Under the pieces are notes generated by a model that saw only the letters and a program-made list of their open reading frames with translations, made no database searches and was not told the DNA's origin. DNA of 64,000 nt. Origin: a virus. The stretch lies in the IMG/VR virus record IMGVR_UViG_3300044712_000499, positions 15,490 through 79,489 of that record; one strand, written 5' to 3'. Below are positions 6,699 to 26,256 of this stretch, piece by piece. A program made the position numbers and the translations under genes. Numbering within the stretch: position 1 is the first letter of the stretch; every line of letters begins with the position of its first letter.

Positions 6699-7541
6699 TT
6701 AAAGACCACAGTATCCGCTATCACAATCAGTAAAGTCTGAGAAGGTTAACTCAGCGTAAGGCTTCCACGCATTTATCTGCTTAAACGTAATTTCTTTTCT
6801 AAATCTATTGCCGGTTTCATCCTCTTTACGTTCAAACCACTTCATCTTATCCGAATTATTTCTATTCATCATTGAAAGAAGTAATGGATTCTTGTGAAAG
6901 CAACCAACACAGTTGTTGTAATAACCTTCAATAAATGGCACTGGTTTATTTTTCCAATAGGCATCTACCATATCCTTTCTTATTCTATTCTCTATAAGAG
7001 GGAACTTAGGTATTCTCCATGCTATGTCTCCCCATTTATTCTGACTCTTGCGGGTTCCTACAATAGCTTTATAAGTATCAAGACCTTCACTGTTTAACTT
7101 ATCTTGCATCCTTACCATCCTATCTTCCTCTCCAAACCTAAACCCAATGTTCATATAACAAATATCCTTAACATAGCGTTGCCACCACTCAAAAATAGGT
7201 TTCATTTTAAGTTCAGTAGTACAATAACGAGCCATTAGATTGGGCAGATAATTACCTTTCTTCTTGATAATATCATCAAAGGTTTCTCCGCTAACCCAAA
7301 AGATTTCTCTCCCTATAAACTGCTCTAGTTCTAACATTATGGGTATAATAGCATCCATTTCTAAGGTTCCTATAAAATCTTTCTGTAGTTTAAGAGAAAC
7401 GGTCTTTCTTATTCCTTTGTCGGGATATTTTAACTTCTTGTCATTCGTTCTGACCAAGGCAAAGACATCATAGTCCGCAGGATAGTTCTTTGCGATATAA
7501 GACGAACTCTTACCTCCCGATAAGCTATTTATTGTTTTCAT
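6699..7541 (-). CDS. PAPS-reductase-like / adenine-nucleotide alpha hydrolase family protein
   Basis: PP-loop SLSGGKSS, RYCTTELK, NCVGCF, C-terminal CDSGYC. Confidence 0.8.
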   Translation of the reverse strand: MKTINSLSGGKSSSYIAKNYPADYDVFALVRTNDKKLKYPDKGIRKTVSLKLQKDFIGTLEMDAIIPIMLELEQFIGREIFWVSGETFDDIIKKKGNYLPNLMARYCTTELKMKPIFEWWQRYVKDICYMNIGFRFGEEDRMVRMQDKLNSEGLDTYKAIVGTRKSQNKWGDIAWRIPKFPLIENRIRKDMVDAYWKNKPVPFIEGYYNNCVGCFHKNPLLLSMMNRNNSDKMKWFERKEDETGNRFRKEITFKQINAWKPYAELTFSDFTDCDSGYCGL

Positions 7542-7879
7542 TAATCTTCTCCTAATAAATAAGTTTTCTCTGGCGTGGTTATAGAAACCCTTCTTTGTTT
7601 AAATTTAATCATTAGCCTATCCGCTAGCTCCCACGCATCATAAATCAATCGTTGTTTTTCTTTGGGAAACCTTGCATAGCTAATAAACCCAACTATTGCG
7701 CCGTCTTCCCATCCGTCTTTGTAAACAAACCTTGTGGGTGTTATGGTAACACAATTACCTGGGTATTGGCAATATCTATAACAGACATCATAAACCTCAT
7801 TGATGTTGTGCCTAATATCAGAATATTCTTCTCTTAGTCCAATCCATATCTGTATGTTAAAAGAATCAACTGTTTTCAT
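7541..7879 (-). CDS. Conserved-looking phage hypothetical protein
   Basis: Translationally coupled on both sides; CVTITPT.F.Y..G.E.G pattern. Confidence 0.65.
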   Translation of the reverse strand: MKTVDSFNIQIWIGLREEYSDIRHNINEVYDVCYRYCQYPGNCVTITPTRFVYKDGWEDGAIVGFISYARFPKEKQRLIYDAWELADRLMIKFKQRRVSITTPEKTYLLGED

Positions 7880-9038: not shown

Positions 9039-9830
9039 TTACTCATTGCTTTTCCTTTTGATTACCATGGCAATTTTTCTTCTAGGAATCAGAATATACA
9101 ACTCATCTCCATTGAACGTGGCAGAGTAACTCTTTCGCTCAAGCGGGAGGTGTACCGTATTTCTCTCAAGCAATACCTCATCTCCTGGTTGTAGGTCTTG
9201 GTGGTCTATGTAGGATTTAACTTTATATGATCTATTGCAGGTTCCAACATACCGGACTATAGCTCTTGTCTTGTCTATTTTGTCTTCGCTTGTAACGTCT
9301 AAGGCTGATAACTTTGGGAGGTTTACTGTTTGACAGAGTACGTAGCCGTTAAGAGGGATGACTTTAATAACTTCCCTTAATCCACCCTCAAAGTTTCCTC
9401 CAAGTTTCCACAGTTCGACTTCTTTTCTCTTTGCCACATAGCAGTCAGCATAAGGCAGTATCTTGTAGGTCTTGCCCTCGCAAAGGACTTCATGCGAATT
9501 TGCCGATTCTATTAAAGAGAAAAAAACCACGTCTGATTCTTGTAGTTCCATATCGGTATCCCATTCCATAGAATTAGGATCATTCTCATTGTAGTAGAGC
9601 TTTGGTGGGCACTTGTAAACTATACCCCATACCTCTTGAAGATTTGCGGGATGAGAGTCCGAACCTTCAGCGTAATTTACTGACCGATTAAACCCATATA
9701 CGATTCCGCTTCTCGTTGTAGCACCATCGCTAGAGTACGTCATCTCTACAATCACTTGGTTGCACTTGTCGGTTAAGATACCTTCATCAAGTTGCTTTCT
9801 TGTCAGTTCTATCTTTGGGTTTTCTATCAT
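9039..9830 (-). CDS. Tandem double GroES-like (Cpn10) protein
   Basis: Domain 1: TTRSGIV...GIV...DVVFF...EGKTYKIL. Domain 2: IPLNGYVL...AIVRYVG...LQPGDEVL. Confidence 0.7.
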   Translation of the reverse strand: MIENPKIELTRKQLDEGILTDKCNQVIVEMTYSSDGATTRSGIVYGFNRSVNYAEGSDSHPANLQEVWGIVYKCPPKLYYNENDPNSMEWDTDMELQESDVVFFSLIESANSHEVLCEGKTYKILPYADCYVAKRKEVELWKLGGNFEGGLREVIKVIPLNGYVLCQTVNLPKLSALDVTSEDKIDKTRAIVRYVGTCNRSYKVKSYIDHQDLQPGDEVLLERNTVHLPLERKSYSATFNGDELYILIPRRKIAMVIKRKSNE

Positions 9831-10069
9831 AATTGTTCAAACATTAGCTTGTTATACTCTTCTTCATTAAGAGTTATACCCCTTATCTTTTTTCCGCAAG
9901 AGGGGCAGTAGTTAACATGGAATCCCCCTATGCAAGCCATGGTATATTTTTTAGTACCATCCTCTTCATAGAAATACCACTTAAATGTTGGGAGTATTTT
10001 CTTTATGGGCTCACAGCAAAATTCAGTTTCCATTTTTCTTATCTTTATTTTCAAACCATATTTCAACAT
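9827..10069 (-). CDS. Small Cys-rich hypothetical protein
   Basis: FCC and YCPSCG motifs. Confidence 0.6.
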   Translation of the reverse strand: MLKYGLKIKIRKMETEFCCEPIKKILPTFKWYFYEEDGTKKYTMACIGGFHVNYCPSCGKKIRGITLNEEEYNKLMFEQL

Positions 10070-10280
10070 CCGGTGTAACGCCTATTTCATGCTCAATTTC
10101 CCCATCGAACTCTATAAGTAGTCTATCTCTCTTAGTCTTATTAACGTAAGAAATAGATAATACCTTTAGCGGGGATGCCATACCTGCCCTAAAGAAATGA
10201 TCACCAACTATGTAGGTAGTACTGATTATATCTCCCGACACGGGGACTTTATTGAAGCGGATGCTCGTTATTTCTTTCAT
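10023..10280 (-). CDS. Hypothetical protein
   Basis: 85-aa ORF in a tight operon. Confidence 0.6.
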   Translation of the reverse strand: MKEITSIRFNKVPVSGDIISTTYIVGDHFFRAGMASPLKVLSISYVNKTKRDRLLIEFDGEIEHEIGVTPDVEIWFENKDKKNGN

Positions 10281-10287
10281 TTACTAA

Positions 10288-10500
10288 TTAAAACATATTC
10301 CATGTTTTATCCATGTTTAAAATACCATCAGCTTTGAAATTATCATCTTGCAATTCAAGATTCCCGTTTTTATACATTTTATCCCTATTTATTTTAAGGA
10401 CTTCAATAGCTTTTTCTTTTGCTTCTTCTTCTGACTCAGATTTAACATGGATACAAATAATTGCTTTATAGCCAAATGTTACTTGATAATTTGTTTTCAT
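10288..10500 (-). CDS. Hypothetical protein
   Basis: 70-aa ORF with a V.A.SEEEA.EKA-type motif. Confidence 0.65.
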   Translation of the reverse strand: MKTNYQVTFGYKAIICIHVKSESEEEAKEKAIEVLKINRDKMYKNGNLELQDDNFKADGILNMDKTWNMF

Positions 10501-11198
10501 TTCATTATTTGATTTAGTATTTCTCTTTCCTCAGTACTTAAAATTTCGTATAGCTTTTGCGGGTCTTCCCTCTCCTTGATCTTCTTACACCAAAAGTCAA
10601 CACGATTCAGGTTTTGCTTGCTCTTAATATCGAATACTACTGCATCATCCACAATCTTACTCGTCTGCACATGTGGTTTGATAGCTAAAGTAACAAGCCC
10701 GTCAAGCCCCCAGTTCTTATCTTTAGTCCATGGTCGCCAGTCAACCTTGTCAAGCACGCTAGAGCTTATAGTCTTGCACACTCCTAGCATACTCTTTCCT
10801 GTGAATTTAACCATGTCTCCTTTGTATATCCCTGCCGTGCCAAAGAAATAGATGTTCTGTACTCCTACTAAGTCATAGCCTTTCTGTACTTCTGTATTTA
10901 TTCTTTGGTAGGTTTCTGTACTCATAACATTGTCGGAACCCAAAATCATGCAATAGTCTACTTTTATTGACCTCATATAAGCCATGGCACGGTTGTATTT
11001 CTCTGAAACGGGGTAGTTCTCCTGTTCTATGTGTACTATATGCCCGTTTTCACATATCCCTTTGTCCTCTGAGCCACTTACTACCACTGCGGGTATGTAT
11101 GTCTCGGTTTCACGTCTTAAACGGTTCACAGACTCCACCCACAAGCTCAAAATGAGAGGTCTATTATGGTTAGCGCAAATAAGTCCCAATGTTTTCAT
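10497..11198 (-). CDS. GT2-like glycosyltransferase
   Basis: LGLICANHNRP, KYNRAM, MILGSDN, WGLD. Start refined to MKTLG at 11198, coupled to the upstream small ORF. Confidence 0.7.
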   Translation of the reverse strand: MKTLGLICANHNRPLILSLWVESVNRLRRETETYIPAVVVSGSEDKGICENGHIVHIEQENYPVSEKYNRAMAYMRSIKVDYCMILGSDNVMSTETYQRINTEVQKGYDLVGVQNIYFFGTAGIYKGDMVKFTGKSMLGVCKTISSSVLDKVDWRPWTKDKNWGLDGLVTLAIKPHVQTSKIVDDAVVFDIKSKQNLNRVDFWCKKIKEREDPQKLYEILSTEEREILNQIMK

Positions 11199-11440: not shown

Positions 11441-12223
11441 TTAACCTTTGGTGGTTTCAAGTAATTCAAATTGTTCTATAACTTTAAATATCTGTAACGC
11501 AACGCCTGGTACTATCGCATTGCCATAAGCCTTTATAGATTCTCTTCTCCATTCTGAAACGGTAATTCCGTCCATTGCGGTGGAAACCCCATCATTGTTG
11601 CTAACAACGTCGGATTCGGATATACGGTACGCTTCTTGAAACCTATTCTGTAGTTCAGAAAATGTTTTAATTGACTTTTCCACCTTTCTCTGTTTAGTGC
11701 AGACTTTGGTGTGCTCCCTTTCCAATCGCTTGTTGTTGGAGTAGGCAATAAACCATACCCTATCTCTGCTATGGGGGGCATCAACGGCACAAGCTGGAAG
11801 TATAATCGGTTGTACGACGTACCCTTGAAGTTCCAGGTCAGTACACACCTGCTCGAATACCAATCCCCCGTTCCAATTAACAATTCCATAAACATTTTCT
11901 CCCACAACCCAAACCGGTTCAATCTGCTTAATAACTTCAAGCATTCGAGGCCAGAGATGGCGGTTATCATTCGTGCCCTCTCTTTTTCCCGTTTGGCTAA
12001 AGGGTTGGCATGGAAACCCTCCGGTAAGTATGTCAATTCTTCCTCGGTGAATAGAGAAGTCTGTTTTTGTGATGTCTCCATAACTTATTGCATTAGGCCA
12101 GTAATATTTTAAAACTTTTCGTCCAAATTCATTCCATTCACAATGAAACACATTATTCCATCCCATCCATTGAGCAGCCATATCAAATCCGCCAATCCCG
12201 CTAAAGAGTGAACCATGTCTCAT
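11441..12223 (-). CDS. dcm: DNA cytosine-5 methyltransferase (alpha-type chain lacking an obvious motif IX)
   Basis: Motif I FSGIGG, IV GFPCQPFS, VI ENV, VIII SRDRVWF, X AYGNAIVP. Confidence 0.92.
   Translation of the reverse strand: MRHGSLFSGIGGFDMAAQWMGWNNVFHCEWNEFGRKVLKYYWPNAISYGDITKTDFSIHRGRIDILTGGFPCQPFSQTGKREGTNDNRHLWPRMLEVIKQIEPVWVVGENVYGIVNWNGGLVFEQVCTDLELQGYVVQPIILPACAVDAPHSRDRVWFIAYSNNKRLEREHTKVCTKQRKVEKSIKTFSELQNRFQEAYRISESDVVSNNDGVSTAMDGITVSEWRRESIKAYGNAIVPGVALQIFKVIEQFELLETTKG
11533..12081 (-). CDS. Overlapping alternative-frame ORF, putative MTase beta subunit carrying motif IX
   Basis: 182-aa ORF nested in dcm; LLPTPTTSDWKG and NPTLLATMMGFPPQWT resemble the motif IX GFP..W segment. 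Confidence 0.55.
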   Translation of the reverse strand: METSQKQTSLFTEEELTYLPEGFHANPLAKREKERARMITAISGLECLKLLSRLNRFGLWEKMFMELLIGTGDWYSSRCVLTWNFKGTSYNRLYFQLVPLMPPIAEIGYGLLPTPTTSDWKGSTPKSALNRERWKSQLKHFLNYRIGFKKRTVYPNPTLLATMMGFPPQWTELPFQNGEENL

Positions 12224-15777: not shown

Positions 15778-16041
15778 ATGATACGACAAGAAAGAAGAAG
15801 TTCGCTGAGAGAGATGACCAAAGAGATAAGTAAGTTTGAAAAGACTGGACTTTATAAGTCTATGGTGGGTTATTTCAATAAACTCCCCAAAGATCAATAT
15901 GAACTACTAGAAAAGGGAACGCACGAAAACCCGCTAAAGCAAAACGAGTTTAACGGTTTCATGCGTCTTATGAAAGGTTATATAGAGTTACAGACTAGAG
16001 CTGACTATCTAAGGTCACTCAGAGTAGGCGAAAAGCACTGA
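15778..16041 (+). CDS. Hypothetical protein
   Basis: 87-aa ORF; 3' end overlaps the convergent groES-like gene. Confidence 0.5.
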   Translation: MIRQERRSSLREMTKEISKFEKTGLYKSMVGYFNKLPKDQYELLEKGTHENPLKQNEFNGFMRLMKGYIELQTRADYLRSLRVGEKH

Positions 16042-16293
16042 ACTTTCCGGTAATAAAAAATAGTCCGTAGAATCGTCGTCTACATTAAATTTTGTTGCTG
16101 ACAGTCTAGGGTAAAGAACTATCATTCCTTCTTTGATGGTTTCACAGGCAGACCCCGTTAGGATTACCTTACCACTTAATGTATCATTCTTTGTTACTTG
16201 CACCGGAGCGATTATACCGCTAGGCCGAACTGTTTCGACCTTATCCAACTGCTGTAAAATCAATTTTGTAGGAAGTACTAAGCCACGTCTCAT
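16015..16293 (-). CDS. groES: GroES/Cpn10-like co-chaperonin
   Basis: RPSGIIAP mobile loop, GKVILTG, IKEGMIVLY, YFLLPESSVL. Confidence 0.8.
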   Translation of the reverse strand: MRRGLVLPTKLILQQLDKVETVRPSGIIAPVQVTKNDTLSGKVILTGSACETIKEGMIVLYPRLSATKFNVDDDSTDYFLLPESSVLFAYSE

Positions 16294-16394
16294 GTTTCTC
16301 TTGTTTTAGTTTTGACAAAGATACTTAAAATTCTTGTTTATTTGTTTTGAAAAGTCAATTTGTTTATTTATCTTTGAATAAAATTACAAGAGAG

Positions 16395-16487
16395 ATGACA
16401 ACAAATCAATTCTATGATGACAATAAGGAGTGGATACTGCTCTTTGGTGTTTTGGTGGTAGCTACTTTGATAATGTGGTTTGCATGA
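16395..16487 (+). CDS. 30-aa single-TM peptide (not in track)
   Basis: MTTNQFYDDNKEWILLFGVLVVATLIMWFA, immediately after the promoter at 16369-16376. Confidence 0.45.
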   Translation: MTTNQFYDDNKEWILLFGVLVVATLIMWFA

Positions 16488-16507
16488 TACGAGAATCAAA
16501 AGGTAAT

Positions 16508-17146
16508 ATGTATTCTTGGGTTACGCACACATGGAATACTGTTAAGGGAGAATGCCCACATGGTTGTACTTATTGCTATATGAAGCGATGGGGTACACAG
16601 ACTCCTGTCAGATTTGATTATGATGAACTAAAGACAGACCTAGGATCGGGCAATATTATCTTTGTCGGCTCTAGTTGCGATTTATTTGCAGAAGCTATCC
16701 CTAGTGAATGGATTCACAACACACTACAACACTGTAATATTTACGATTCAAATGAGTATTTATTTCAAAGTAAGAACCCCAAAGGATTTGCTTATATAAG
16801 GCAACACCAGATACCAAAATACAGACTTTGCACTACAATAGAAACAAATAGGGTTTATCCTAAAGAGATGCAACTATCGCCATCCCCTATGGAAAGAGCA
16901 CTTGCATTATCTAAGTATGTTTTGGATTATCGGTATGTGACCATTGAGCCTATTATGGACTTCGATATTGATGAGTTGGTAACGCTGATTGAAATGATTG
17001 CGCCCGATCAAGTAAATATAGGAGCAGACAGTGGCAACAACGACTTACCCGAACCGTCTAAAGATAAAGTTATATCTCTTATAGAAGAACTATCTAGGTT
17101 TACTACCATAGATAGAAAGACTAACTTAGCAAGGCTTTTAAAATGA
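16508..17146 (+). CDS. DUF5131 / phage Gp37-Gp68 radical-SAM-like protein
   Basis: TWNTVKGECPHGCTYCY (CxxxCxxC), FVGSSCDLF, FQSKNP, VTIEPI. Start refined to MYSW. Confidence 0.82.
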   Translation: MYSWVTHTWNTVKGECPHGCTYCYMKRWGTQTPVRFDYDELKTDLGSGNIIFVGSSCDLFAEAIPSEWIHNTLQHCNIYDSNEYLFQSKNPKGFAYIRQHQIPKYRLCTTIETNRVYPKEMQLSPSPMERALALSKYVLDYRYVTIEPIMDFDIDELVTLIEMIAPDQVNIGADSGNNDLPEPSKDKVISLIEELSRFTTIDRKTNLARLLK

Positions 17147-17727
17147 TAACCTACCTTATCAATAGAGAAGATCGCCCCCAAAGGCTTGCTCATGCTAGAG
17201 AACAACTACAAGCACAGAACTTAAATGCTCATGTGTTTAAGGCTATAGTGGGTTCTCCTGGTTGGAAGGGCTGTCGAGATTCCCACGTAAGTCTCATGGA
17301 GAGATGCCGTAACGAAGAGACGTTCCAAATCCTTGAAGACGATGTACTTTTCTTAGGCGACTACCATTCTGCTGTTGAAAATGCAATGTGGGAACTGCCT
17401 AATGAATGGGATGCTTTGTTTCTTGGGGCATCACCGCAAGAGCCTTTTGAACGCTACTCTGAACATCTATTTAAGATGGGAAAAGCCTTTACAACACATG
17501 CGATCATCTGGCATACACGTTATAAGGGCGCAGTAGAGTTCATCCTATCCAATAAGAAGGACATACATAAAATTGATGTTTTCTTTAACGATTTTATTTA
17601 CTCTAACTTTAATTGCTACTGTATCTATCCATTATTGTGTATTCAATCTGGCTCTTTTTCTTCAGACACATGTAAGGTAAGCGATGTGTCAACTATATCA
17701 AAAAATTATAATTTATTTTGTATATGA
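17143..17727 (+). CDS. GT25-family glycosyltransferase
   Basis: YLINREDRPQRL, GCRDSH, ILEDDV, WDALFLG, TTHA, ID. Confidence 0.8.
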   Translation: MITYLINREDRPQRLAHAREQLQAQNLNAHVFKAIVGSPGWKGCRDSHVSLMERCRNEETFQILEDDVLFLGDYHSAVENAMWELPNEWDALFLGASPQEPFERYSEHLFKMGKAFTTHAIIWHTRYKGAVEFILSNKKDIHKIDVFFNDFIYSNFNCYCIYPLLCIQSGSFSSDTCKVSDVSTISKNYNLFCI

Positions 17728-18815
17728 TAGGGGATAGAAATTACGGAGAAAGTGGCGTATATATAATACAATCAAAGACAAAACCAAACAGGGTATACGT
17801 TGGTAGTGCGGTAGCTGTTGAAAGAAGAAGGTGGGAGCATACAACTGCATTAAGGAAGGGCAAGCATCACTCTCATAAATTACAAAATCATTTTAATAAA
17901 TACGGAGAGAATGATTTAATTTTTGATGTTATAGAGAGCGGTGATTATATAGACAAAAATCACTTACTTTCAAGGGAGCAAGGTTGGTTTTATCATTTTG
18001 ATGACAAAAAAACAGGCAAGCCATATTTCAATGAGTGCGCATTAGCAGGCAGTGTTTTGGGTATTAAACAATCTGAGGAGACAAAGAAGAAGAAGTCTCT
18101 TGCCATAAAAGGTCGTAAAAGAAGGGCAAAAACGCAGATGGAAAAAGATCATCAATCAGATATGTTAAAAGGGAAACCTCTTTCTGATGTGCATAAAGCA
18201 AAACTAAAAGGACATAAGCATAGCGAAGAAACAAAGGCTGTACTTAGAGAGAAACTTAAGGGAAATAAAAATGGAGTTGGTAATAAATCTAGCAAGGGAA
18301 AACCATCCCTAAAAAAGGGTAAAAAACTTCCTTCTCATAGTCCGCAAACAATTTTAAATCAATCTATTGGAATGAAGAAATGGTGGGATAACCATCCAAT
18401 GGAGAAAAATAAAAGGAGCGATATGTTTTCAGGGGAAAAAAATCCGTTTTATGGGAAAAAGCACAAACCAGAGTCTATCATGAAAGGTGTAAGTAAAAAT
18501 AAGGGTAGGAAGGCATCCTCTGAAACCAAGGAAAAACAAAGTATTTCTTTAAAAAAAGCGTGGGCAGAAGGGAGGAATAGAGGTTCTTTTGGTATTCATA
18601 CGCCAATGCCACTAACAACTAGAAATGCACTTAAGACAGCGAATGAAATACCTATCTTACAATTTAACGATAAGAATATATTTATAAAGGAATGGGGGTC
18701 AATTAAGAATGCGTGTATGTGTCTTGGAATATCTTATGCTACAATAATTAAAAGTATTAAACTCGGTATTATTGTTAAGAATAATTTTGCATTTCAATAT
18801 AAACCCGATGCGTAA
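17718..18815 (+). CDS. GIY-YIG homing endonuclease with NUMOD3 repeats
   Basis: SGVYIIQ...YVGSAV...R...H...L....H....LQ..FNKYG; repeated HSEETK/SEETK units; NUMOD1-like tail. Confidence 0.88.
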   Translation: MYMIGDRNYGESGVYIIQSKTKPNRVYVGSAVAVERRRWEHTTALRKGKHHSHKLQNHFNKYGENDLIFDVIESGDYIDKNHLLSREQGWFYHFDDKKTGKPYFNECALAGSVLGIKQSEETKKKKSLAIKGRKRRAKTQMEKDHQSDMLKGKPLSDVHKAKLKGHKHSEETKAVLREKLKGNKNGVGNKSSKGKPSLKKGKKLPSHSPQTILNQSIGMKKWWDNHPMEKNKRSDMFSGEKNPFYGKKHKPESIMKGVSKNKGRKASSETKEKQSISLKKAWAEGRNRGSFGIHTPMPLTTRNALKTANEIPILQFNDKNIFIKEWGSIKNACMCLGISYATIIKSIKLGIIVKNNFAFQYKPDA

Positions 18816-18836
18816 TAATATTAATTTTAATAAATA

Positions 18837-20057
18837 TTGTATATGAAGATAAATAAATGCCCTATAACAGATGCCGATAATGGGGTTAAGTATCTTGACC
18901 TTGGGGATATTCCTTTAGTAAACAATCTTTGTAGTACAAGAGAAAGTTCTTTAGCGTGCAAGAGATATCCTTTATCGGTTCAGCTATTCCAAGGATCGGG
19001 ATTATCATGCCTCACAGAGCTTATCCCTAAAGAAGAACTATTTAGCCACTACCTATATAAATCAGGAGTTAGTAAACCATATATTAGCCACTGTTCTCAG
19101 ATGTATGATTACCTAGATAAGTATGTTAATCTTGAATATGGAGGTATAGTAGTTGACATAGGCGGGAATGACGGTAGTTTGCTCAATGAGTTTAAGAAAA
19201 AGAATGGTACACTAACCCTTATTAATGTTGACCCGTGCATAGAGTTTGCTGATGAGAACATGAGAGAGGGTATTTCATATCATAACGCTTTCTTTGGAGA
19301 GGAGGTTGTACTTCCAGCCAAAGCCACTCTTATCATATCTACCAATGTCTTTCAGCATAATTGGGATATAAGATCATTTGTTAAGGGGGTACATGAAAAT
19401 CTTGATACTAATGGCATTTGGTGTTTAGAGTTCCCATATTGGCTTACTACTATCTTAACCGACAACTACGATCAAGTATATCACGAGCATGTGTATTACT
19501 ACATTTTAAGTAGTCTGCTTACGTTATTTAAGCAAGAAGGGCTTAAGGTGATTAATGTATCTTACCACCCGATTCACGCAGGAACGCTAAGGGTCATAAG
19601 TGCTAAGGAAGAAAGCAGTCTTGTTGCGGACAGTAGCATTGATTCGTTTCTTAATCTTGAGCAACTTATGACAGAGAGCTTTTATATTAAGTGGGGTAAC
19701 TCTATTCAAACTAAGATTAGCGAGTGTGAGGATTTTATCAAAGGATTTGTGCATGTTTACAATGCTAGAATATTCGGTTTTGGTGCTGCCGCCAAGGGCT
19801 GTATATTTCTAAATACCTGCCATCTTACTGACACAGACATGCCGTTTGTCATTGATGACACGCCAGAGAAACAAGGCATGTTTATTCCTGGCACGGGTAT
19901 TGAGATAGTAAGTAGGGATATCTTGAAGAAATGGCATCCAAATTACATTTTGATACTTGCCCATAACTTCAAGGATTATATTATCAAGTCGTTAAGAAAC
20001 GATGGCTATATAGGCGGATTTATTATAATGTTTCCAGAAATAGAAGTAATAGACTAA
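18837..20057 (+). CDS. NDP-sugar C-methyltransferase (TylCIII/NovU-like)
   Basis: N-terminal Zn-binding-type region, VDIGGNDG, YDQVYHEHVYYY, HAGTLR, GFGAAAKG, DDTPEKQG.FIPGT. Confidence 0.88.
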   Translation: MYMKINKCPITDADNGVKYLDLGDIPLVNNLCSTRESSLACKRYPLSVQLFQGSGLSCLTELIPKEELFSHYLYKSGVSKPYISHCSQMYDYLDKYVNLEYGGIVVDIGGNDGSLLNEFKKKNGTLTLINVDPCIEFADENMREGISYHNAFFGEEVVLPAKATLIISTNVFQHNWDIRSFVKGVHENLDTNGIWCLEFPYWLTTILTDNYDQVYHEHVYYYILSSLLTLFKQEGLKVINVSYHPIHAGTLRVISAKEESSLVADSSIDSFLNLEQLMTESFYIKWGNSIQTKISECEDFIKGFVHVYNARIFGFGAAAKGCIFLNTCHLTDTDMPFVIDDTPEKQGMFIPGTGIEIVSRDILKKWHPNYILILAHNFKDYIIKSLRNDGYIGGFIIMFPEIEVID

Positions 20058-20058
20058 T

Positions 20059-20601
20059 ATGCAAGAATTATCTCTTTTAGACTTAAACACAAGAGGCGTT
20101 GCAGGACTCTCTTTCTCAGATAAGGGAACACTTCATAGCTATCTGCCTTATTATGATGTATTGTTTAGCCCTTTCCGATATAGGTCTATAAACATCTTTG
20201 AAGTGGGCTATCAGCACGGAGGTAGTTGTATGTTATTTAGCCTTTACTTTTCCGATGCTAAGATACTCGCTATTGATACCGATGGGTGTGTGCCTTTACC
20301 AGAGTCGGGGCGAATACTTGTTGATGTTCTTGATATCGCAGGTCTTACTCCGGCTTACTTTGATAATTTCATTCCCGACATAGCCATAGATGATGGTTCT
20401 CATACAATAGAAGATCAGATAAGGTTTATTCGTCTTGTTTATCCCGTTTTAAGAGAAGGTGGTATGCTTATCGTTGAGGATATTCAGAATATTGATAAAC
20501 AAAAGGAAATATTTGATCTTCTTAATATTCCATATACCATCTATGACTTAAGACACATCAAGGGAAGATATGACGATGTTTTTTTAGTTTTTAATAAATA
20601 A
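20059..20601 (+). CDS. Class I SAM-dependent methyltransferase (sugar O-methyltransferase-like)
   Basis: DKGTLHSY..YYD, EVGYQHGGS, IDDGSH, GGMLIVEDI. Confidence 0.8.
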   Translation: MQELSLLDLNTRGVAGLSFSDKGTLHSYLPYYDVLFSPFRYRSINIFEVGYQHGGSCMLFSLYFSDAKILAIDTDGCVPLPESGRILVDVLDIAGLTPAYFDNFIPDIAIDDGSHTIEDQIRFIRLVYPVLREGGMLIVEDIQNIDKQKEIFDLLNIPYTIYDLRHIKGRYDDVFLVFNK

Positions 20602-20604
20602 TCC

Positions 20605-21366
20605 ATGAATAAGATAGTTATTGCCTATCACGCCTACTTATATGGCAATCGCTATATGGAGATGGTAGTTGATCAGCTAAGAAAAATTAGTAGTGCTATT
20701 TGGCATGAAGATACTCAGTCATTGGAGGTAAACTTATTTCCACTGTGTCACAAAATGTACATTGGTATTGTTGATACTCCCACAAAGAAGCCTAGTCATG
20801 GAGTCGAATGGCTAACTAATTGGTTTAATACTAAGTCAAGTAAACTTGATTGCGATGTTATATGCCCTAAACTTGAAGTGGTTGTTTATCCAAAGAATGA
20901 AGAGTTAAGGGGAACATTAAGATGGATACGTGACTATGCAAAAGAGAATCCAGATGATTATATTCTATTTTTTCACACCAAGGGGATAACTCATCTGACT
21001 GAAGCTACCGAGGACTGGCGTAAGTATATGGAGTATTTTGTTCTTAAAAGATGGAAGGATTGTGTGCAGAAGTTAGATGAGGGGTACGACTGTTGCGGTG
21101 TTTTATGGAATACGGACACACCAATAGGAATCTGGCCTCATTTCTCCGGTGCATTCTTTTGGGCAAAGGCTAGTTATATAAATACACTTGATCATAGTTA
21201 TTTGGAATCAAAGTGGCGATACATGATGGAGTTTTGGATAGGGAGTAATCCTAATGCCAAGGTTTATGAGTTTCATAATTCTGGATTTAACTCAAAAGAA
21301 AGACTACTAGCAAGACAAGGACATTATAATATTCCATATCCCCCTAAAGAATATGAGATAAAATGA
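20605..21366 (+). CDS. Uncharacterised protein, possibly glycosyltransferase-like
   Basis: HTKGI...WRKYMEYF...YDCCG...HFSGAFFWA pattern; embedded in the glycan operon. Confidence 0.5.
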   Translation: MNKIVIAYHAYLYGNRYMEMVVDQLRKISSAIWHEDTQSLEVNLFPLCHKMYIGIVDTPTKKPSHGVEWLTNWFNTKSSKLDCDVICPKLEVVVYPKNEELRGTLRWIRDYAKENPDDYILFFHTKGITHLTEATEDWRKYMEYFVLKRWKDCVQKLDEGYDCCGVLWNTDTPIGIWPHFSGAFFWAKASYINTLDHSYLESKWRYMMEFWIGSNPNAKVYEFHNSGFNSKERLLARQGHYNIPYPPKEYEIK

Positions 21367-21950
21367 GTACGCTTCACGTAATATGTACAGCATTCAATCG
21401 TCCTATTCAACTTAGGATGATGATAGACTCTTTCCTCTTACAAACAGACGGAAGGTGGAAATTGACTGTTATACATGACGGGCAAGCATCACAAGAGATT
21501 CATGATATTATTGGATGGTATAACGATAACCGGATAACATTCTTTGAGACGGATATTGTTGGCGGTAGTTATGGTCATCCTAATAGAAAGTATATGTTAA
21601 ATCAGATACAGGGAGACAAGGATGACTTTGTATTAATAACGAATGAAGATAATTATTACGTTCCCGCTTTTGTAGAATACTTTCTTGGGGCATGTACGCC
21701 TCGTGTGGGCATGGTTTATTGTAACACTATTCATTCTTATCTTAAATACAATATTCTAGTAACTAAGGTTAAGGAGAATTATATAGACATGGGGTCTTTT
21801 ATTGTAAGATTAGCAGTAGCAAAGGCAACTGGTTTTAATCATGCACACCTCTCGGCAGATGGTAAATATGCAGAAGAGTGTTTTCAAACGTGCCGTAAGC
21901 GAGGGTTGATGCCCGTGTGTATTAATAAACCTCTTTTTGTTCATAATTGA
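21363..21950 (+). CDS. GT2 glycosyltransferase
   Basis: VICTAFNRP, VIHDG, GHPNR, NEDNYY. Confidence 0.8.
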   Translation: MSTLHVICTAFNRPIQLRMMIDSFLLQTDGRWKLTVIHDGQASQEIHDIIGWYNDNRITFFETDIVGGSYGHPNRKYMLNQIQGDKDDFVLITNEDNYYVPAFVEYFLGACTPRVGMVYCNTIHSYLKYNILVTKVKENYIDMGSFIVRLAVAKATGFNHAHLSADGKYAEECFQTCRKRGLMPVCINKPLFVHN

Positions 21951-22642
21951 AAGACATGAAAAATTTACTAATAACAACAATAGGAAAGTATAATCATTTC
22001 TCTGCGTGGATTGATGGAGAAAGAGATTATGACATAGCCGTAGTTATTTATGATGACTCAGTTCAGCCAAAGGTAAGTGACAACACTTGCTTGGTCGTTG
22101 AACGCTTTAAGACTTTCAAGTACGAGGGTATTAAAAGATTATTTGACTTGCACCCCACGTTATCTGACTACGACTACTTTTGGATGCCGGATGAGGATAT
22201 ATGGGCTAAACCTGAAGATATAAACAGAATCTTTACTCTGACAAAGGAAAGAGAACTTTGGTTGTCGCAACCAAGCATACTAGATACCCACGACAGCTTT
22301 CCTTCATGGAAGTGTTTTGCCCATAGACCCGACGTAGAACTTGTTCATACTAACTTTATAGAGGTTATGTGTCCGTGTGTTTCACGCAAGGCAATGAAGA
22401 AGATTTACCCCCTGCTTAATAAGTCTAAGTCGGGATGGGGGCTAGACCTCATTTGGAGTTGGCTTGGAGTTGACGAGAAGATGGGCATACTGAACTCTGT
22501 ACCCGTTAAGCACACACGTCCCGTTGGTGGAGGAACGCTTTACTCTGAGTTAGCCGCCAAGGGTATCTATCCATCAAGAGAAAGAAAGAAGTTAATGAAA
22601 GAGTTCGGCATTCCAAGTATTGACATAAAAACATGGATATAG
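21947..22642 (+). CDS. DUF707-like GT-A glycosyltransferase
   Basis: YDYFWMPDEDI, LSQPS, TNFIEVMCP, GWGLDLIW, H.RP. Confidence 0.72.
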   Translation: MKDMKNLLITTIGKYNHFSAWIDGERDYDIAVVIYDDSVQPKVSDNTCLVVERFKTFKYEGIKRLFDLHPTLSDYDYFWMPDEDIWAKPEDINRIFTLTKERELWLSQPSILDTHDSFPSWKCFAHRPDVELVHTNFIEVMCPCVSRKAMKKIYPLLNKSKSGWGLDLIWSWLGVDEKMGILNSVPVKHTRPVGGGTLYSELAAKGIYPSRERKKLMKEFGIPSIDIKTWI

Positions 22643-23319
22643 TCTTTCTTATAACCACTTACAATAGAAGGGAATCCTGCCAAAGACTTGTTGACTCTCT
22701 ACAAGGACTAGGAGATATAGTCGTTCTAGGAGATCATGTGGACTACACCATTAGTGGGTGTAGCTTTACAAACCTACCGGAGCACTATGGAAGATCAGGT
22801 TATTGGTTTACTGTTAAGCGTCTCTTTGCCATGAGGGGTAAGCATAAATACTTCATGATGCTTCCTGATGATTTCATGATGTGTGAAACGCAAGTTATGG
22901 AAGCTATAAAGTTATGGGAGGGTATTAACGATCCGCAAAAGATATGCCTAAACCTATACATGGACAGATTAGGTCTTAAGTGTTGGACTAATTTTTATCC
23001 TACATCATTGGGTAATGTTTGGCAGACAGGATGGGTAGATATGTGTTTCCTTTGCGAGGAATCCTTCTTTTGTAATTTCAAACTTAGGCAGAAGATATCC
23101 CATACTAGTAGTGGAGTGGGCGCACAGATAAGCAGACAGTTGTTTCACAGGAAGTTTCATTTATACCAGGTTAAGGAGAGTCTTGTAACGCCCCAAAGTG
23201 AACATTCTATATCCCAAATGCACAATGAACAAAACAGTAACGGTGGGAATCGCCAGTCTCAAAGAGAGAGAAAAGTCTATGATACTCGTCGTAGAGGCAG
23301 TAAAAGATCAATGCGATAA
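22633..23319 (+). CDS. GT2-like glycosyltransferase
   Basis: ITTYNRRESC..L, MLPDDF, GVGAQIS. The polar tail overlaps the next gene by 95 nt. Confidence 0.68.
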   Translation: MDIVFLITTYNRRESCQRLVDSLQGLGDIVVLGDHVDYTISGCSFTNLPEHYGRSGYWFTVKRLFAMRGKHKYFMMLPDDFMMCETQVMEAIKLWEGINDPQKICLNLYMDRLGLKCWTNFYPTSLGNVWQTGWVDMCFLCEESFFCNFKLRQKISHTSSGVGAQISRQLFHRKFHLYQVKESLVTPQSEHSISQMHNEQNSNGGNRQSQRERKVYDTRRRGSKRSMR

Positions 23320-23893
23320 GGTAGTAGTAGGACTTAATAACTATACGAGGGTTCCCGAAGCACTATCTTGCTATTCCAATGTGGAATGTCATCTGCTCGA
23401 TAATTCTTTGGGAGATGCGGCAAAGATGCTCACAGTTGGTTCATGTGACGGTTACTATGCCACCTTGGACGACGATCTATTGCCCCCAAAGACCTTCATT
23501 CAAGATTTGATTAGAGGCATAGACCGGTATAATGGATTCATATCTTTTCATGGTAAGGTGTACAATAGGGGGTTCAGTGGGTTTAAAAAACCGTCTATCG
23601 TCTATCGTTGTCTTGGTTCTGTGGCTGATGACGTCCGTGTCAACTTCATAGGTACGGGATGTTCGGGTTTTCACACAGACCGCCTAAAGCTATCAATAGA
23701 TATGTTCCCTATAAAAAATATGGCTGACGTACACGTTTCTAAGGCATGTCATGACCAAGGGGTACAAATGGTCGTCCTTAAGCATGATCGTGGCTATTTC
23801 GCCTATCAGCAACCTTCAGGAGGGACAATTTGGGAGTCGTTTAGAGGAGCAACCCCCGTACAGGATAAAATAATGAGAACTTTTCTTAAATAA
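23225..23893 (+). CDS. GT2-like glycosyltransferase
   Basis: VGIAS...RE, GDAAK, TLDDDL, GTG, NMADV. Start refined to MNKTV. Confidence 0.72.
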   Translation: MNKTVTVGIASLKEREKSMILVVEAVKDQCDKVVVGLNNYTRVPEALSCYSNVECHLLDNSLGDAAKMLTVGSCDGYYATLDDDLLPPKTFIQDLIRGIDRYNGFISFHGKVYNRGFSGFKKPSIVYRCLGSVADDVRVNFIGTGCSGFHTDRLKLSIDMFPIKNMADVHVSKACHDQGVQMVVLKHDRGYFAYQQPSGGTIWESFRGATPVQDKIMRTFLK

Positions 23894-23945
23894 GATTTGC
23901 TTTTTACATTAAGATAGTTTATCTTTGGTGAAAAATAAGAGAGAA

Positions 23946-24125
23946 ATGAAAACATTTAATGTAGGATTGACAATAATCTCCATATTGGCGTTAGCGGCAT
24001 TAATCATCAGTACGGCAATATTCGGAGAAAGAGGGAATGATGATGCTATGTGGGGGTATGGATTAGCATCTATTTATTGTTTTTTGTATATAATTCAGTT
24101 ATTAAAACCCACTAAAGAGAAATGA
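23946..24125 (+). CDS. Small 2-TM membrane protein
   Basis: After the promoter at 23920; two hydrophobic helices. Confidence 0.6.
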   Translation: MKTFNVGLTIISILALAALIISTAIFGERGNDDAMWGYGLASIYCFLYIIQLLKPTKEK

Positions 24126-24379
24126 AACCACAATACATCAAGAACAAAACCGCCCAAAGGCTAAGAGATGGCTTTCATACTGATCTCATGGCTTTCTTTG
24201 AAGAAAGCATAGACCTATATACAGAGAAGAACTTTATGCGGGGTCATGATTCGTTCTTTGAGGATGCTAGTGTTCATGCCTACAATATTGCAGAGAAACT
24301 TGGGTATTTAGATGAAAACGACACTAGACTTGCAGCAGTAATTATAGAAGACTATTTTAACTCAATAAAACCACAATAG
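24122..24379 (+). CDS. Hypothetical protein
   Basis: Coupled ORF. Confidence 0.6.
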   Translation: MKPQYIKNKTAQRLRDGFHTDLMAFFEESIDLYTEKNFMRGHDSFFEDASVHAYNIAEKLGYLDENDTRLAAVIIEDYFNSIKPQ

Positions 24380-24381
24380 CT

Positions 24382-24588
24382 ATGGAGGATACATTTACAA
24401 GCACAGTTGATGGTGCTGCCGGATTTGAAAGGATGAGGGTCATTGAAGAAGAACGTAAAAACAGACCTTCAAGGCTTGATGTTATGGATTTCAGAGATGA
24501 AGAAGAGGTTGAATACGATGACTATGATAGATGTAACTGCTCTGATCCTGGTTGTCCATGTGGCGGTATTAAAAGAGGAGGTGTTTAA
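24382..24588 (+). CDS. Hypothetical acidic/Cys protein
   Basis: CNCSDPGCPC motif. Confidence 0.55.
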   Translation: MEDTFTSTVDGAAGFERMRVIEEERKNRPSRLDVMDFRDEEEVEYDDYDRCNCSDPGCPCGGIKRGGV

Positions 24589-24848
24589 TGCGCAATAGAG
24601 TGTATTTTAATGACACTGATTTTAATGAGTGTGTTATAGAGCAGAGCGAGATGCTTTTGATGCAAGCAAAGCCTATACTCGAGAGCCTTACCAGTTGTAG
24701 GTTAAGAAGACAATCATTACCTCGTTTTATTAATACAGAAGAAGAGGCAAAGGAACAGCATGAGTTAAACGCACTAGAGATATATCTAATCTCTCAGCTT
24801 CACGCTCTACTAGGATATGATGATGTAAACAAAAAATTTATATTTTAA
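24588..24848 (+). CDS. Hypothetical protein
   Basis: Coupled ORF. Confidence 0.55.
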   Translation: MRNRVYFNDTDFNECVIEQSEMLLMQAKPILESLTSCRLRRQSLPRFINTEEEAKEQHELNALEIYLISQLHALLGYDDVNKKFIF

Positions 24849-24851
24849 ATA

Positions 24852-25316
24852 ATGAAGGATAAAAACAACTACTACGACATTAGCGGGGTTATCTATGCAA
24901 AGCCAATGCGCTTGGTTCCCGACAAAAAGAATAAGAACAACGGACAGCCATGGGAGTTTCCATCCATAATACTAGAAGTTAAGCGTGAGTATGACGGACG
25001 TGAGTTCATAGAGCTTCCTGAGTTCGACCTTGGTAAGGGAGTAAGCACAGAAGACTTTAGCGTGAGGGACAACGTAACGATAACCTTTAGCCTTTCGGGT
25101 AGGGAGATTGAGTACAAGGACAGGCAAGGGGAGAAGGCTAAGATGCACAAGACAACCGCCAAAGCACTATATATCAAGCACTCAGACATACAGAGTAATG
25201 ATACAAGAGCTATAGGCACTTCATTTGTTCCTGCCCATAAGGATGATAGCATACCGCCACTGCCTTACAGCGAGGGTGCGAGTAAAGAAGAAGACGAAAG
25301 TGATCTACCGTTCTGA
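24852..25316 (+). CDS. DUF3127-like single-stranded DNA-binding protein
   Basis: W...IILE...EF...V.ITFSLSGRE OB-fold pattern with an acidic tail ending DLPF. Confidence 0.75.
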   Translation: MKDKNNYYDISGVIYAKPMRLVPDKKNKNNGQPWEFPSIILEVKREYDGREFIELPEFDLGKGVSTEDFSVRDNVTITFSLSGREIEYKDRQGEKAKMHKTTAKALYIKHSDIQSNDTRAIGTSFVPAHKDDSIPPLPYSEGASKEEDESDLPF

Positions 25317-25504
25317 TGATTGATAAACTCATAATATGGAACCCGCTAGAGCCCTACGACAGTCTAGATAATGAAAAACATCTTAATACTGAGTATTGTA
25401 AAGACTGTGAGAAACCTATTGATGAGTGTAGGTGCTTAAGTCCTTGTTGCTCGGCAAAGATTATACATCACGATATTTGTTCTAACTGCCTTGATCATGT
25501 GTAA
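25316..25504 (+). CDS. Small Cys-rich protein
   Basis: Several CxxC motifs. Confidence 0.55.
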   Translation: MIDKLIIWNPLEPYDSLDNEKHLNTEYCKDCEKPIDECRCLSPCCSAKIIHHDICSNCLDHV

Positions 25505-25829
25505 TATGGAATACTTAGACGACACCGGATATCCAACAGATGAGTTTTTGGATTATGTCAAGTACTCTACAGTAACAAGATATAGTGCATTCTCATTCTT
25601 TAAAGAGATAGAATCTTATTGGGCGTATGGCGCATGGATTTGGGAAGATGGAATGGATTTTCAGGGAAGCCCCGTAAAGTTAGTAAGCATATCTACATGG
25701 GGATGGAGTGGAAATGAATCTATTATAGATGCGATGCAACATAACTTTATCTTATGGTCGCTATTTTGGGTACAACACCGTAGAGGAGGACATTATCAAT
25801 TTGAAATACCATGGCAACAGCAGAATTAA
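25491..25829 (+). CDS. Conserved-looking phage hypothetical protein
   Basis: STWGWSGNE...W...RGGHY.F. Confidence 0.65.
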   Translation: MIMCNMEYLDDTGYPTDEFLDYVKYSTVTRYSAFSFFKEIESYWAYGAWIWEDGMDFQGSPVKLVSISTWGWSGNESIIDAMQHNFILWSLFWVQHRRGGHYQFEIPWQQQN

Positions 25830-26059
25830 AGTTTAACCTAGAAGACCCCGATGACAGAATGGAGTTTGAGAGATGCACCAAAGCTACTGACCTAGCATTA
25901 GTACTTTGGGAGGTCTACCATAACTCATGGAGGGACATAGAGCGTCAGATAGAGGCAGGGACTATCAAAGAACCACAGGACGCTATAGATGCTTACGTTC
26001 TAGCGATACAAGAACAGATGGACAACCACAACATAATCATTGATAAACTTGTAATCTAA
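25811..26059 (+). CDS. Hypothetical protein
   Basis: A.LKFNL.DPDD..EF pattern. Confidence 0.65.
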   Translation: MATAELKFNLEDPDDRMEFERCTKATDLALVLWEVYHNSWRDIERQIEAGTIKEPQDAIDAYVLAIQEQMDNHNIIIDKLVI

Positions 26060-26256
26060 TGGCAGACATCAGTAAATGTTCGGGTGCTAACTGCCCGCTA
26101 AAGAAAACCTGCTATAGATATACTGCTATAAGCAATGAATACTATCAGTCATATAGTGAATGGTTCCCCGCTAAAGTTAAAAATAAGTGGACTTGCGATG
26201 GATACGAGAGCAACAAAGGACTATGGAGAATATCGATACCAATAAGACATGAGTAA
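26059..26256 (+). CDS. Small Cys-containing phage protein
   Basis: MADISKCSG..CPLK..CYRYTA. Confidence 0.65.
   Translation: MADISKCSGANCPLKKTCYRYTAISNEYYQSYSEWFPAKVKNKWTCDGYESNKGLWRISIPIRHE

Follow-up and report, generated by a model that had tools for sequence, protein, structure and literature searches.

The window analysed here, a stretch of 64,000 nucleotides comprising bases 15490-79489 of the 82,580-bp IMG/VR virus record IMGVR_UViG_3300044712_000499, carries a block of ten plus-strand genes in succession (16484-23893, about 7.5 kb), with two outlying glycosyltransferase genes besides. The record has terminal repeats (exact, 127 bp), is rated 100% complete, and encodes a large terminase, a portal, virion proteins, a helicase, exonucleases and a tyrosine integrase. 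The genes of the block are, in order, DUF5131, GT25, a GIY-YIG endonuclease, a sugar C-methyltransferase, a sugar O-methyltransferase, DUF8361, GT2, DUF707, a new GT-A and a KfiA-like gene (Table 1), joined by anything from a 4-nt overlap to a 27-nt gap except at the 3' end, where overlaps of 10 nt and 95 nt occur. Every gene listed in an earlier reading of the same DNA from its letters alone (the sequence-only reading) is present, on the plus strand and tightly coupled, and the families assigned there stand, but the 363-aa homing endonuclease was overlooked, and a protein described as unknown ('HTKG') is indeed there but is not without a family, being DUF8361 with an RgpF-like model. The enzymology proposed there is supported by eight GT-A-type transferases or candidates (six within the block and two outliers) and by two sugar methyltransferases, one acting on oxygen and the other a deoxysugar C-methyltransferase that keeps its catalytic residues. 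The block is very likely a glycan-building island, and it would be the local version of a hypervariable glycan-biosynthesis island in a family of ~73-88-kb tailed phages, probably of Bacteroidota. Its operon boundaries are drawn from gene spacing only, because scans of 14.5-25 kb for promoter and terminator consensus sequences gave no excess over shuffled expectation.

Table 1. Genes of the plus-strand block, followed by outlying, flanking and neighbouring genes (positions are those of the window; scores are profile matches)
Feature	Position	Strand	Evidence and remarks
DUF5131 radical-SAM-superfamily protein	16484..17146	+	PF07505 40 bits (cut-off 28.9); CxxxCxxC; phrog_2045
GT25-family glycosyltransferase	17143..17727	+	PF01755 46 bits (cut-off 24); invariant EDD motif; first conserved island gene
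Free-standing GIY-YIG/NUMOD3 homing endonuclease, 363 aa	17724..18815	+	TIGR01453 94.9 bits (cut-off 56); PF01541, PF07460; phrog_314
NDP-4-keto-sugar 3-C-methyltransferase, TylC3/TcaB9-like	18843..20057	+	PF08484 (Methyltransf_14) 90 bits; PF13489 43 bits
SAM-dependent sugar O-methyltransferase, MycE/TylE-like	20059..20601	+	PF13578 (Methyltransf_24) 24.6 bits, just under cut-off; phrog_21658
DUF8361 ('HTKG' gene)	20605..21366	+	PF27674 (precomputed); RgpF-like model
Small GT2, SpsA-like GT-A	21363..21950	+	PF00535 18.7 bits, under cut-off
DUF707, candidate transferase	21956..22642	+	PF05212 33.8 bits (cut-off 24.1); invariant DED motif
GT-A glycosyltransferase, no Pfam model	22633..23319	+	Invariant PDD motif; first of pair kept in all relatives
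KfiA-like (GT45-type) retaining HexNAc-transferase candidate	23225..23893	+	Invariant DDD motif; second of conserved pair
GT2, 336 aa	7876..8886	-	PF00535 61 bits; phrog_841; terminase strand, upstream of terminase gene
Divergent GT2	10497..11198	-	Weak PDB profile matches, all to GT2 enzymes
Small Cpn10/GroES-like gene, 92 aa	16015..16293	-	Precomputed Pfam Cpn10 (weak); conserved left-flank marker
Protein, 85 aa	10023..10280	-	Homologues between GT2 and GroES-like gene in L027, L033/34
263-aa protein, probably tandem GroES-like	9039..9830	-	Cpn10 in 2 of 7 homologues, best E 1.1e-4
C5 cytosine DNA methyltransferase, not assigned to island	11441..12223	-	PF00145 149 bits

Profile searches with the GT25 protein retrieve mimivirus R655 as the best solved relative (E 7.6e-9), together with bacterial GT25 enzymes and the procollagen galactosyltransferase COLGALT1, and the small GT2 matches SpsA at E 1.5e-9. 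The DUF8361 protein, whose family occurs in Nucleocytoviricota too and for which a literature search found no describing paper, has an ESM Atlas model (predicted template modelling score, pTM, 0.85) whose matches, at TM 0.63-0.78, are clusters of glycosyltransferases and of the rhamnan-synthesis protein RgpF; judged from this model, it is probably a transferase with a GT-A-like fold of RgpF type. Structure prediction, which had been proposed as a check on the block, confidently assigns its last two genes to the GT-A fold. The first of them, with 189 homologues of which none has a Pfam domain, has an AlphaFold2 model (predicted local distance difference test, pLDDT, 90.8) that matches GT-A enzymes in Foldseek with probability 1.0 and TMq 0.5-0.6, and mimivirus R699 is among its nearest solved matches. 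The second matches residues 301-526 of heparosan synthase B, the N-acetylglucosaminyltransferase (GlcNAc-T) domain, at E 1e-47 and KfiA at 7e-32, and its AlphaFold2 model (pLDDT 94.6) matches 8viw and 5z8b at TMq 0.8-0.9; it has the attributes of GT45, namely a GT-A fold matching KfiA and the GlcNAc-T domain of PmHS2, and a DDD motif in 21 sequences. Alignment of 21 homologues indicates that this gene probably starts at 23225, rather than at 23198 or 23279. A predicted complex of the two proteins scored 0.00, which is neutral on binding. Between their genes there is an overlap of 95 nt in this genome and of ~50-90 nt in most relatives, shrinking to just 4 nt in L036 and L038 (contigs used for comparison carry L numbers), and the overlapped C-terminal tail of the GT-A protein is poorly conserved and modelled with low confidence (pLDDT 54-61).

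Two further glycosyltransferases had been placed outside the block by the sequence-only reading, and both hold up: the gene at 7876 is a clear GT2, and that at 10497 is a divergent GT2 with 994 homologues (PF00535 in 21 of the 50 checked). Downstream of the former, on the same strand, lies a gene for a 3'-phosphoadenosine-5'-phosphosulfate (PAPS)-reductase-like protein (6699-7541, minus strand; phrog_424, without Pfam match), the two being separated by a 112-aa gene (7541-7879). A sulfotransferase-like gene occurs in one unrelated phage cassette (L010).

The C-methyltransferase has the three-domain architecture of TylC3 and TcaB9, with an N-terminal Methyltransf_13 domain (PF08421, 23.7 bits, under the 31.3 cut-off), a class I S-adenosylmethionine (SAM) domain and a C-terminal Methyltransf_14 domain, and it matches TylC3 (4rv9; E 1.3e-45) and TcaB9 (7e-26) over its full length. 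Its Tyr, His and Tyr-x-Glu-His align with TcaB9/TylC3 residues and are invariant in 118 homologues; these presumably have the active-site roles given to them in the published TcaB9 structures. The family profile of the O-methyltransferase matches 3ssm, which we take to be MycE, at E 2.4e-15 and the demethylmacrocin O-methyltransferase TylE (8ia9) at 1.8e-13. The absence of nucleoside diphosphate (NDP)-sugar synthesis genes, which the sequence-only reading had reported for the window, extends to the complete 82,580-bp genome for the two families tested, profile searches having found no match to extended short-chain dehydrogenase/reductase (SDR) epimerases/dehydratases or to nucleotidyltransferases. 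Both the nucleotide sugars and the ketoreduction that has to follow C-methylation would need to be supplied by the host, which leaves a gap in the chemistry proposed below.

A pattern scan of IMG/VR found no close relatives of either the GT-A at 22633 or the 263-aa protein at 9039, and the true relatives of this phage were reached through protein-database homologues of the Pfam-less GT-A. They are six contigs of 32.6-88 kb (five of them 73-88 kb) with islands at the same place and in the same frame, which consists of a Cpn10-like gene followed by an island that terminates in the pair of GT-A and KfiA-like genes; the frame also has GT25 at the start and, often, a GT2, DUF707 and a further GT2. 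Homologues of GT25 were found in L027, L032, L033/34 and L037, and DUF707 is kept in L027, L033/34, L036 and L037. The remaining content differs from contig to contig. One relative has GT25, a C-methyltransferase, a DUF8361-GT2 fusion (442 aa in L027) and DUF707; a second has GT25, a C-methyltransferase, GT11-, GT25-, GT32- and GT10-like genes and an SDR; a third has a DegT-like aminotransferase, WbqC, a thiamine-diphosphate enzyme pair, an ATP-grasp protein and a GH130-like gene; a fourth has a radical SAM/SPASM enzyme, a formyltransferase, WbqC, an ATP-grasp protein, a hexapeptide acyltransferase and DegT; a fifth has an SDR, KAS III, MaoC, HAD, GNAT, FdtA and DegT; and a sixth has several GT2, three SDRs, a UDP-GlcNAc 2-epimerase-type gene and a B12-radical SAM enzyme. 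With this genome and its six relatives, the locus is hypervariable, showing seven different contents that all end in the same gene pair. The island is of the O-antigen-locus pattern, with fixed ends and swappable chemistry; of the conservation in related contigs for which the sequence-only reading had called, the ends of the block are an instance, whereas the tailoring genes between them are exchanged.

Five of the six relatives have the conserved pair followed directly, with no change of strand, by homologues of three proteins: the GT2 at 10497, the 85-aa protein and the 263-aa protein. In this genome the trio (9039-11198) is inverted onto the terminase strand, beside the C5 DNA methyltransferase gene, and its position on the opposite strand implies that a rearrangement has parted it from the island. 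The left flank is likewise recognisable, Cpn10-like homologues being found directly upstream of the island in L027, L032 and L033/34. Two co-chaperonin-like genes, the 92-aa Cpn10-like gene and the probable tandem GroES-like gene of 263 aa, bracket the island in relatives; a function in capsid folding is possible, as with T4 gp31. The 263-aa protein gave no match in the PDB, and its candidacy as a TET/JBP-like dioxygenase was rejected, its homologues matching Cpn10. DegT/DnrJ/EryC1-type aminotransferases are usually ~370 aa long; those of the relatives measure ~196-228 aa (L033 2300-2920, L035 7999-8589, L036 6884-7474, L037 7242-7928) and may be a shortened phage form or split genes. L032 (NCBI JBFOMW010000745.1) is reported as 82,580 bp, exactly the length of the genome from which the window comes, which is either coincidence or a metadata quirk; at the DNA level no similarity between the two could be detected, and at the conserved gene their proteins are only 57% identical.

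The part of the island that would deal with the methylated sugar also occurs in phages of other kinds. A core of C-methyltransferase, DUF8361 and O-methyltransferase genes, often with the small GT2, was found in 16 IMG/VR contigs at 44-58% identity, and these contigs have no other genes in common with this phage. In one lineage the core is flanked by further GT2 genes, with tail-type genes on one side and the head protease and portal on the other; in a second it directly follows the major head protein, ahead of connector genes and the tape measure, and is accompanied by a 1,084-aa multidomain GT8/methyltransferase protein and a sulfotransferase; in a third it adjoins large unannotated proteins.

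Two genes of the block appear to stand outside the pathway. DUF5131 was part of the run described by the sequence-only reading, and the gene is present; its role in the pathway is doubtful because it is missing from all six relatives, no homologue occurring in their islands. Among these phages it is found in this genome alone, and the glycan pathway probably does not include it as a conserved component. Its Radical_SAM match (21 bits) is under the cut-off, and the only paper on DUF5131 found in a literature search treats it as a radical SAM subgroup, placing it in Megacluster-5 (5-2) of the superfamily, with spore photoproduct lyase in 5-3 (PMC9477430). The GIY-YIG gene, inserted between GT25 and the C-methyltransferase, is selfish DNA and takes no part in the pathway; its two neighbours abut or overlap in L027 and L032, where no gene separates them. 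Endonuclease genes, homologous or similar, occur in or beside the glycan cassettes of several unrelated phages, and sites of this kind were recorded in L007 (3723-4238), L013 (12300-12605), L018 (11357-11875), L022 (6628-6939) and L037 (6569-7270). Homing endonucleases in the island may help to transfer cassettes between co-infecting phages.

The genome offers some indications of the host. One structural-region protein has Fib_succ_major and Lcl_C domains, the integrase has a Phage_int_SAM_5 domain, a gene neighbouring it has DUF6808, and contigs with homologues of the C-methyltransferase were binned as Bacteroidales or Porphyromonadaceae; because of these features, a Bacteroidota host is weakly suggested. 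Near-identical DNA is present in rhizosphere and wastewater metagenomes. A scan of a genome collection for the C-methyltransferase found only four contigs of metagenome-assembled genomes (Bacteroidales, Brevefilum and Omnitrophota), of which at least one is identical to a viral contig, so the host or cellular context of these is not secure. Among 50,697 phage records, DNA of the block matched only two 735-kb records of uncultured phages, at 70% identity over the C-methyltransferase. The 10-mer CTTTAGCGGG occurs 47 times in the window at up to one mismatch, against 2.3 expected, and has no exact copy from 15940 to 26093, so that the island is free of it.

That the glycan is made by soluble enzymes from host nucleotide sugars is well supported. 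No transmembrane segment is predicted in any protein of the block (the maximal 19-residue hydropathy is 1.21), nor do the two outlying GT2 proteins have one, and the complete genome has no match to PF02397, PF00953, PF01943 or PF04932, which represent the phosphoglycosyltransferase, WecA-type, Wzx and Wzy/ligase functions. As to where the glycan goes, the sequence-only reading had named either virion proteins or the host surface glycan; we tentatively favour the phage's own virion proteins, on which a strain-specific, methyl-branched glycan would be built in the cytoplasm, a reading to which we would give slightly under an even chance. The virion-protein target is favoured because the core sits in head and tail operons of other phages, because transferases kept across relatives need an equally kept acceptor, because lipid-carrier genes are absent and the enzymes lack transmembrane segments, and because two GT2 genes lie upstream of the terminase gene and share its strand. 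The glycan is probably strain-specific, since the same spot in relatives holds other enzyme sets. By the mechanism proposed, the host would supply nucleotide sugars, including an NDP-4-keto-6-deoxyhexose from a rhamnose-type pathway; the C-methyltransferase would add a methyl branch at C3, and a host ketoreductase would complete the sugar. The conserved transferases would assemble the underlying chain, with an alpha-linked N-acetylhexosamine (HexNAc) added by the KfiA-like enzyme; the DUF8361 transferase would attach the branched sugar, and the O-methyltransferase would cap it after transfer. The acceptor would be some phage protein that is synthesised in the cytoplasm, with a virion protein as the likeliest candidate, and each strain would in this way carry a surface glycan of its own.

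Several observations weigh against this proposal. Gene placement is divided: the two outlying GT2 genes are on the terminase strand and the core lies in structural operons of two other lineages, but the main island is outside the structural module, heading a plus-strand unit in which many small genes follow it. A C5 DNA methyltransferase gene lies beside two of the transferase genes. No likely acceptor is apparent, as no open reading frame (ORF) has a collagen-like repeat or a Ser/Thr-rich tract (the best 30-residue window has 40% Ser+Thr, and most structural proteins are unannotated), and the profile search of the genome found no encoded ketoreductase or epimerase to finish the branched sugar. 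Neither DUF8361 nor DUF707 has a significant match to a solved structure in PDB profile searches, and because of this their status as transferases comes from the Atlas model for DUF8361 and from Pfam family membership for DUF707. The Cys4 zinc site of the C-methyltransferase is not kept either: across the phage clade of 118 sequences only the first of the four cysteines remains, the other positions being Ser/Thr, Pro/Gln and Ser. With its catalytic residues intact and three of four zinc cysteines replaced, the protein is, by its alignment, an atypical member of the fold that probably shares the activity too.

The alternative that survives best, which we regard as unlikely but plausible for a temperate phage, is that the island remodels the host envelope, its transferases extending or capping host lipid-linked intermediates of lipopolysaccharide (LPS), O-antigen or capsule at the cytoplasmic face, during infection or lysogeny, either for superinfection exclusion or to keep progeny from sticking to debris. 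The synthesis of LPS, rhamnan and capsule is where families such as GT25, GT2, the RgpF-like and the KfiA-like are most familiar, a GtrB-like PHROG is matched by one GT2, and O-antigen-like variability would fit selection on a cell-surface glycan. The presence of a tyrosine integrase makes lysogenic conversion conceivable, but the integrase is ~30 kb from the island, and the position of the island outside the structural operon would suit this explanation, but the related cassettes of other phages lie between capsid and tail genes. The phage would have to borrow the host's initiating transferase, flippase and polymerase, the complete genome having no phosphoglycosyltransferase, WecA-type enzyme, Wzx, Wzy or ligase, and such lipid-carrier genes are likewise missing from the precomputed Pfam lists of the six relatives' islands. 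No membrane protein is predicted in the block, which does not have the composition of a lipid-carrier or Gtr module. Furthermore, host O-units are variable, and transferases that persist from relative to relative require an acceptor that does not change.

Modification of DNA, in which the transferases would glycosylate a modified base for evasion of restriction and the variability of the island would record an arms race with nucleases, is improbable. It draws on the C5 methyltransferase gene, which adjoins the GT2 at 10497 and shares a strand with the GT2 at 7876, and on the report that phages use GT-A enzymes, akin to those of LPS and teichoic-acid synthesis, to assemble mono- to trisaccharides on 5-hydroxymethylcytosine (5hmC), from clusters that occur near structural genes too (Pyle et al., bioRxiv 10.1101/2023.12.21.572611). 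The membership of DUF5131 in Megacluster-5 (5-2), next to the subgroup of the DNA-repair enzyme spore photoproduct lyase (5-3), points the same way. However, the complete genome has no match at E<=1 to a Tet_JBP dioxygenase or a thymidylate-synthase-type hydroxymethylase, and the 263-aa neighbour is GroES-like, not a dioxygenase. In the six relatives, the domains listed for the 10 kb around the island do not include DNA_methylase, Tet_JBP or Thymidylat_synt, and eight transferases with C- and O-methylation of a deoxysugar exceed any DNA glycan described by Pyle et al. Another cytoplasmic acceptor unrelated to the virion, be it a free or small-molecule-linked oligosaccharide or host proteins glycosylated for takeover, is suggested by the position of the island, which opens a unit with many small genes of early type, and by the macrolide deoxysugar pathways to which the nearest characterised relatives of both methyltransferases belong. 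It is just as improbable, as the genome has no polyketide or other aglycone genes, the core sits in structural operons elsewhere, and the number of transferases, eight, speaks for a macromolecule that bears an oligosaccharide or polymer.

Returning to the virion as target, the island can possibly be viewed, at somewhat less than even confidence, as an O-antigen-like 'serotype' locus of the phage, in which conserved soluble transferases lay a core glycan on the particle and exchanged cassettes vary the outer sugar, from host nucleotide sugars and with no lipid carrier. The outer sugar would here be a C-methyl and O-methyl deoxyhexose, and in the relatives it would include N-acyl or N-formyl amino sugars, fucosyl-type sugars and sugars modified by radical SAM enzymes. 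If this is true, phage surfaces could be as antigenically diverse as bacterial O-antigens, in phages of a phylum other than that of the mycobacteriophages, with bearing on adsorption, evasion of defence, grazing, immune recognition of therapeutic phages and the reading of 'auxiliary' carbohydrate genes in viromes. The island is also a compact source of candidate enzymes (zinc-less sugar C-methyltransferases, DUF8361, a Pfam-less GT-A family and phage KfiA-like enzymes) and a test bed in which a constant acceptor would be combined with different tailoring cassettes.

Among known systems, bacterial O-antigen and capsule loci resemble the island in having conserved flanks around swappable tailoring and transferase genes, but here there are no initiating, flipping, polymerising or export genes. 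The heparosan synthases KfiA-KfiC and PmHS2 resemble it in that a KfiA-type enzyme stands beside a second GT-A, as in two-enzyme or two-domain polymerases, whereas the partner GT-A of the island has no specific likeness to a GlcA-transferase domain. TylC3 and TcaB9 (PDB 4rv9, 3ndi) are matched over all three domains by the C-methyltransferase, with catalytic residues conserved; unlike them, the phage clade keeps a single zinc cysteine, and the partner ketoreductase and epimerase are not encoded. The C5-MT/5mYOX/GT clusters of phages (Pyle et al.) likewise have GT-A genes near a C5 cytosine methyltransferase and sugar chemistry that is diverse between phages, but the present genome has no 5mYOX/TET enzyme or hydroxymethylase and far more transferases, and the link to the methyltransferase is not kept in its relatives.

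To our knowledge, experimental proof that proteins of phage particles are glycosylated is confined to a few mycobacteriophages, in which the gene sets are small. These sets consist of a few genes, an O-methyltransferase among them, as against the eight transferase-type genes and the sugar C-methyltransferase of the island. In the mycobacteriophages Che8, Corndog and Myrna (Freeman et al. 2023, Cell Host Microbe 31:1216, as summarised in PMC12619734), phage-encoded glycosyltransferases reportedly decorate capsid and tail-tube subunits of cytoplasmic origin, and soluble phage glycosyltransferases with a sugar methyltransferase are found here too. The present system differs in that its content is swapped between relatives, that no C-terminal Ser/Thr-rich acceptor was found, that the host is probably of the Bacteroidota rather than the Actinobacteria, and that the island is known from genes alone. 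Giant viruses offer a second parallel: chlorovirus capsid glycans are assembled by virus-encoded enzymes (PMC7019647), and in both chlorovirus glycans and mimivirus fibril glycans assembly is cytoplasmic, independent of a lipid carrier and includes methylated sugars. The likeness of mimivirus R655 and R699 to the GT25 and the new GT-A, respectively, is at the level of family and fold only, and the island is in an 82.6-kb tailed bacterial phage in which no genes for making nucleotide sugars were found. Of the demonstrated systems, the virion glycosylation of mycobacteriophages comes nearest, and the closest in scale and in independence from a lipid carrier is that of giant viruses; what is new here is the non-structural position of the island, its terminal pair of GT-A and GT45 genes, its zinc-less clade of C-methyltransferases and the homing endonuclease lodged within it.

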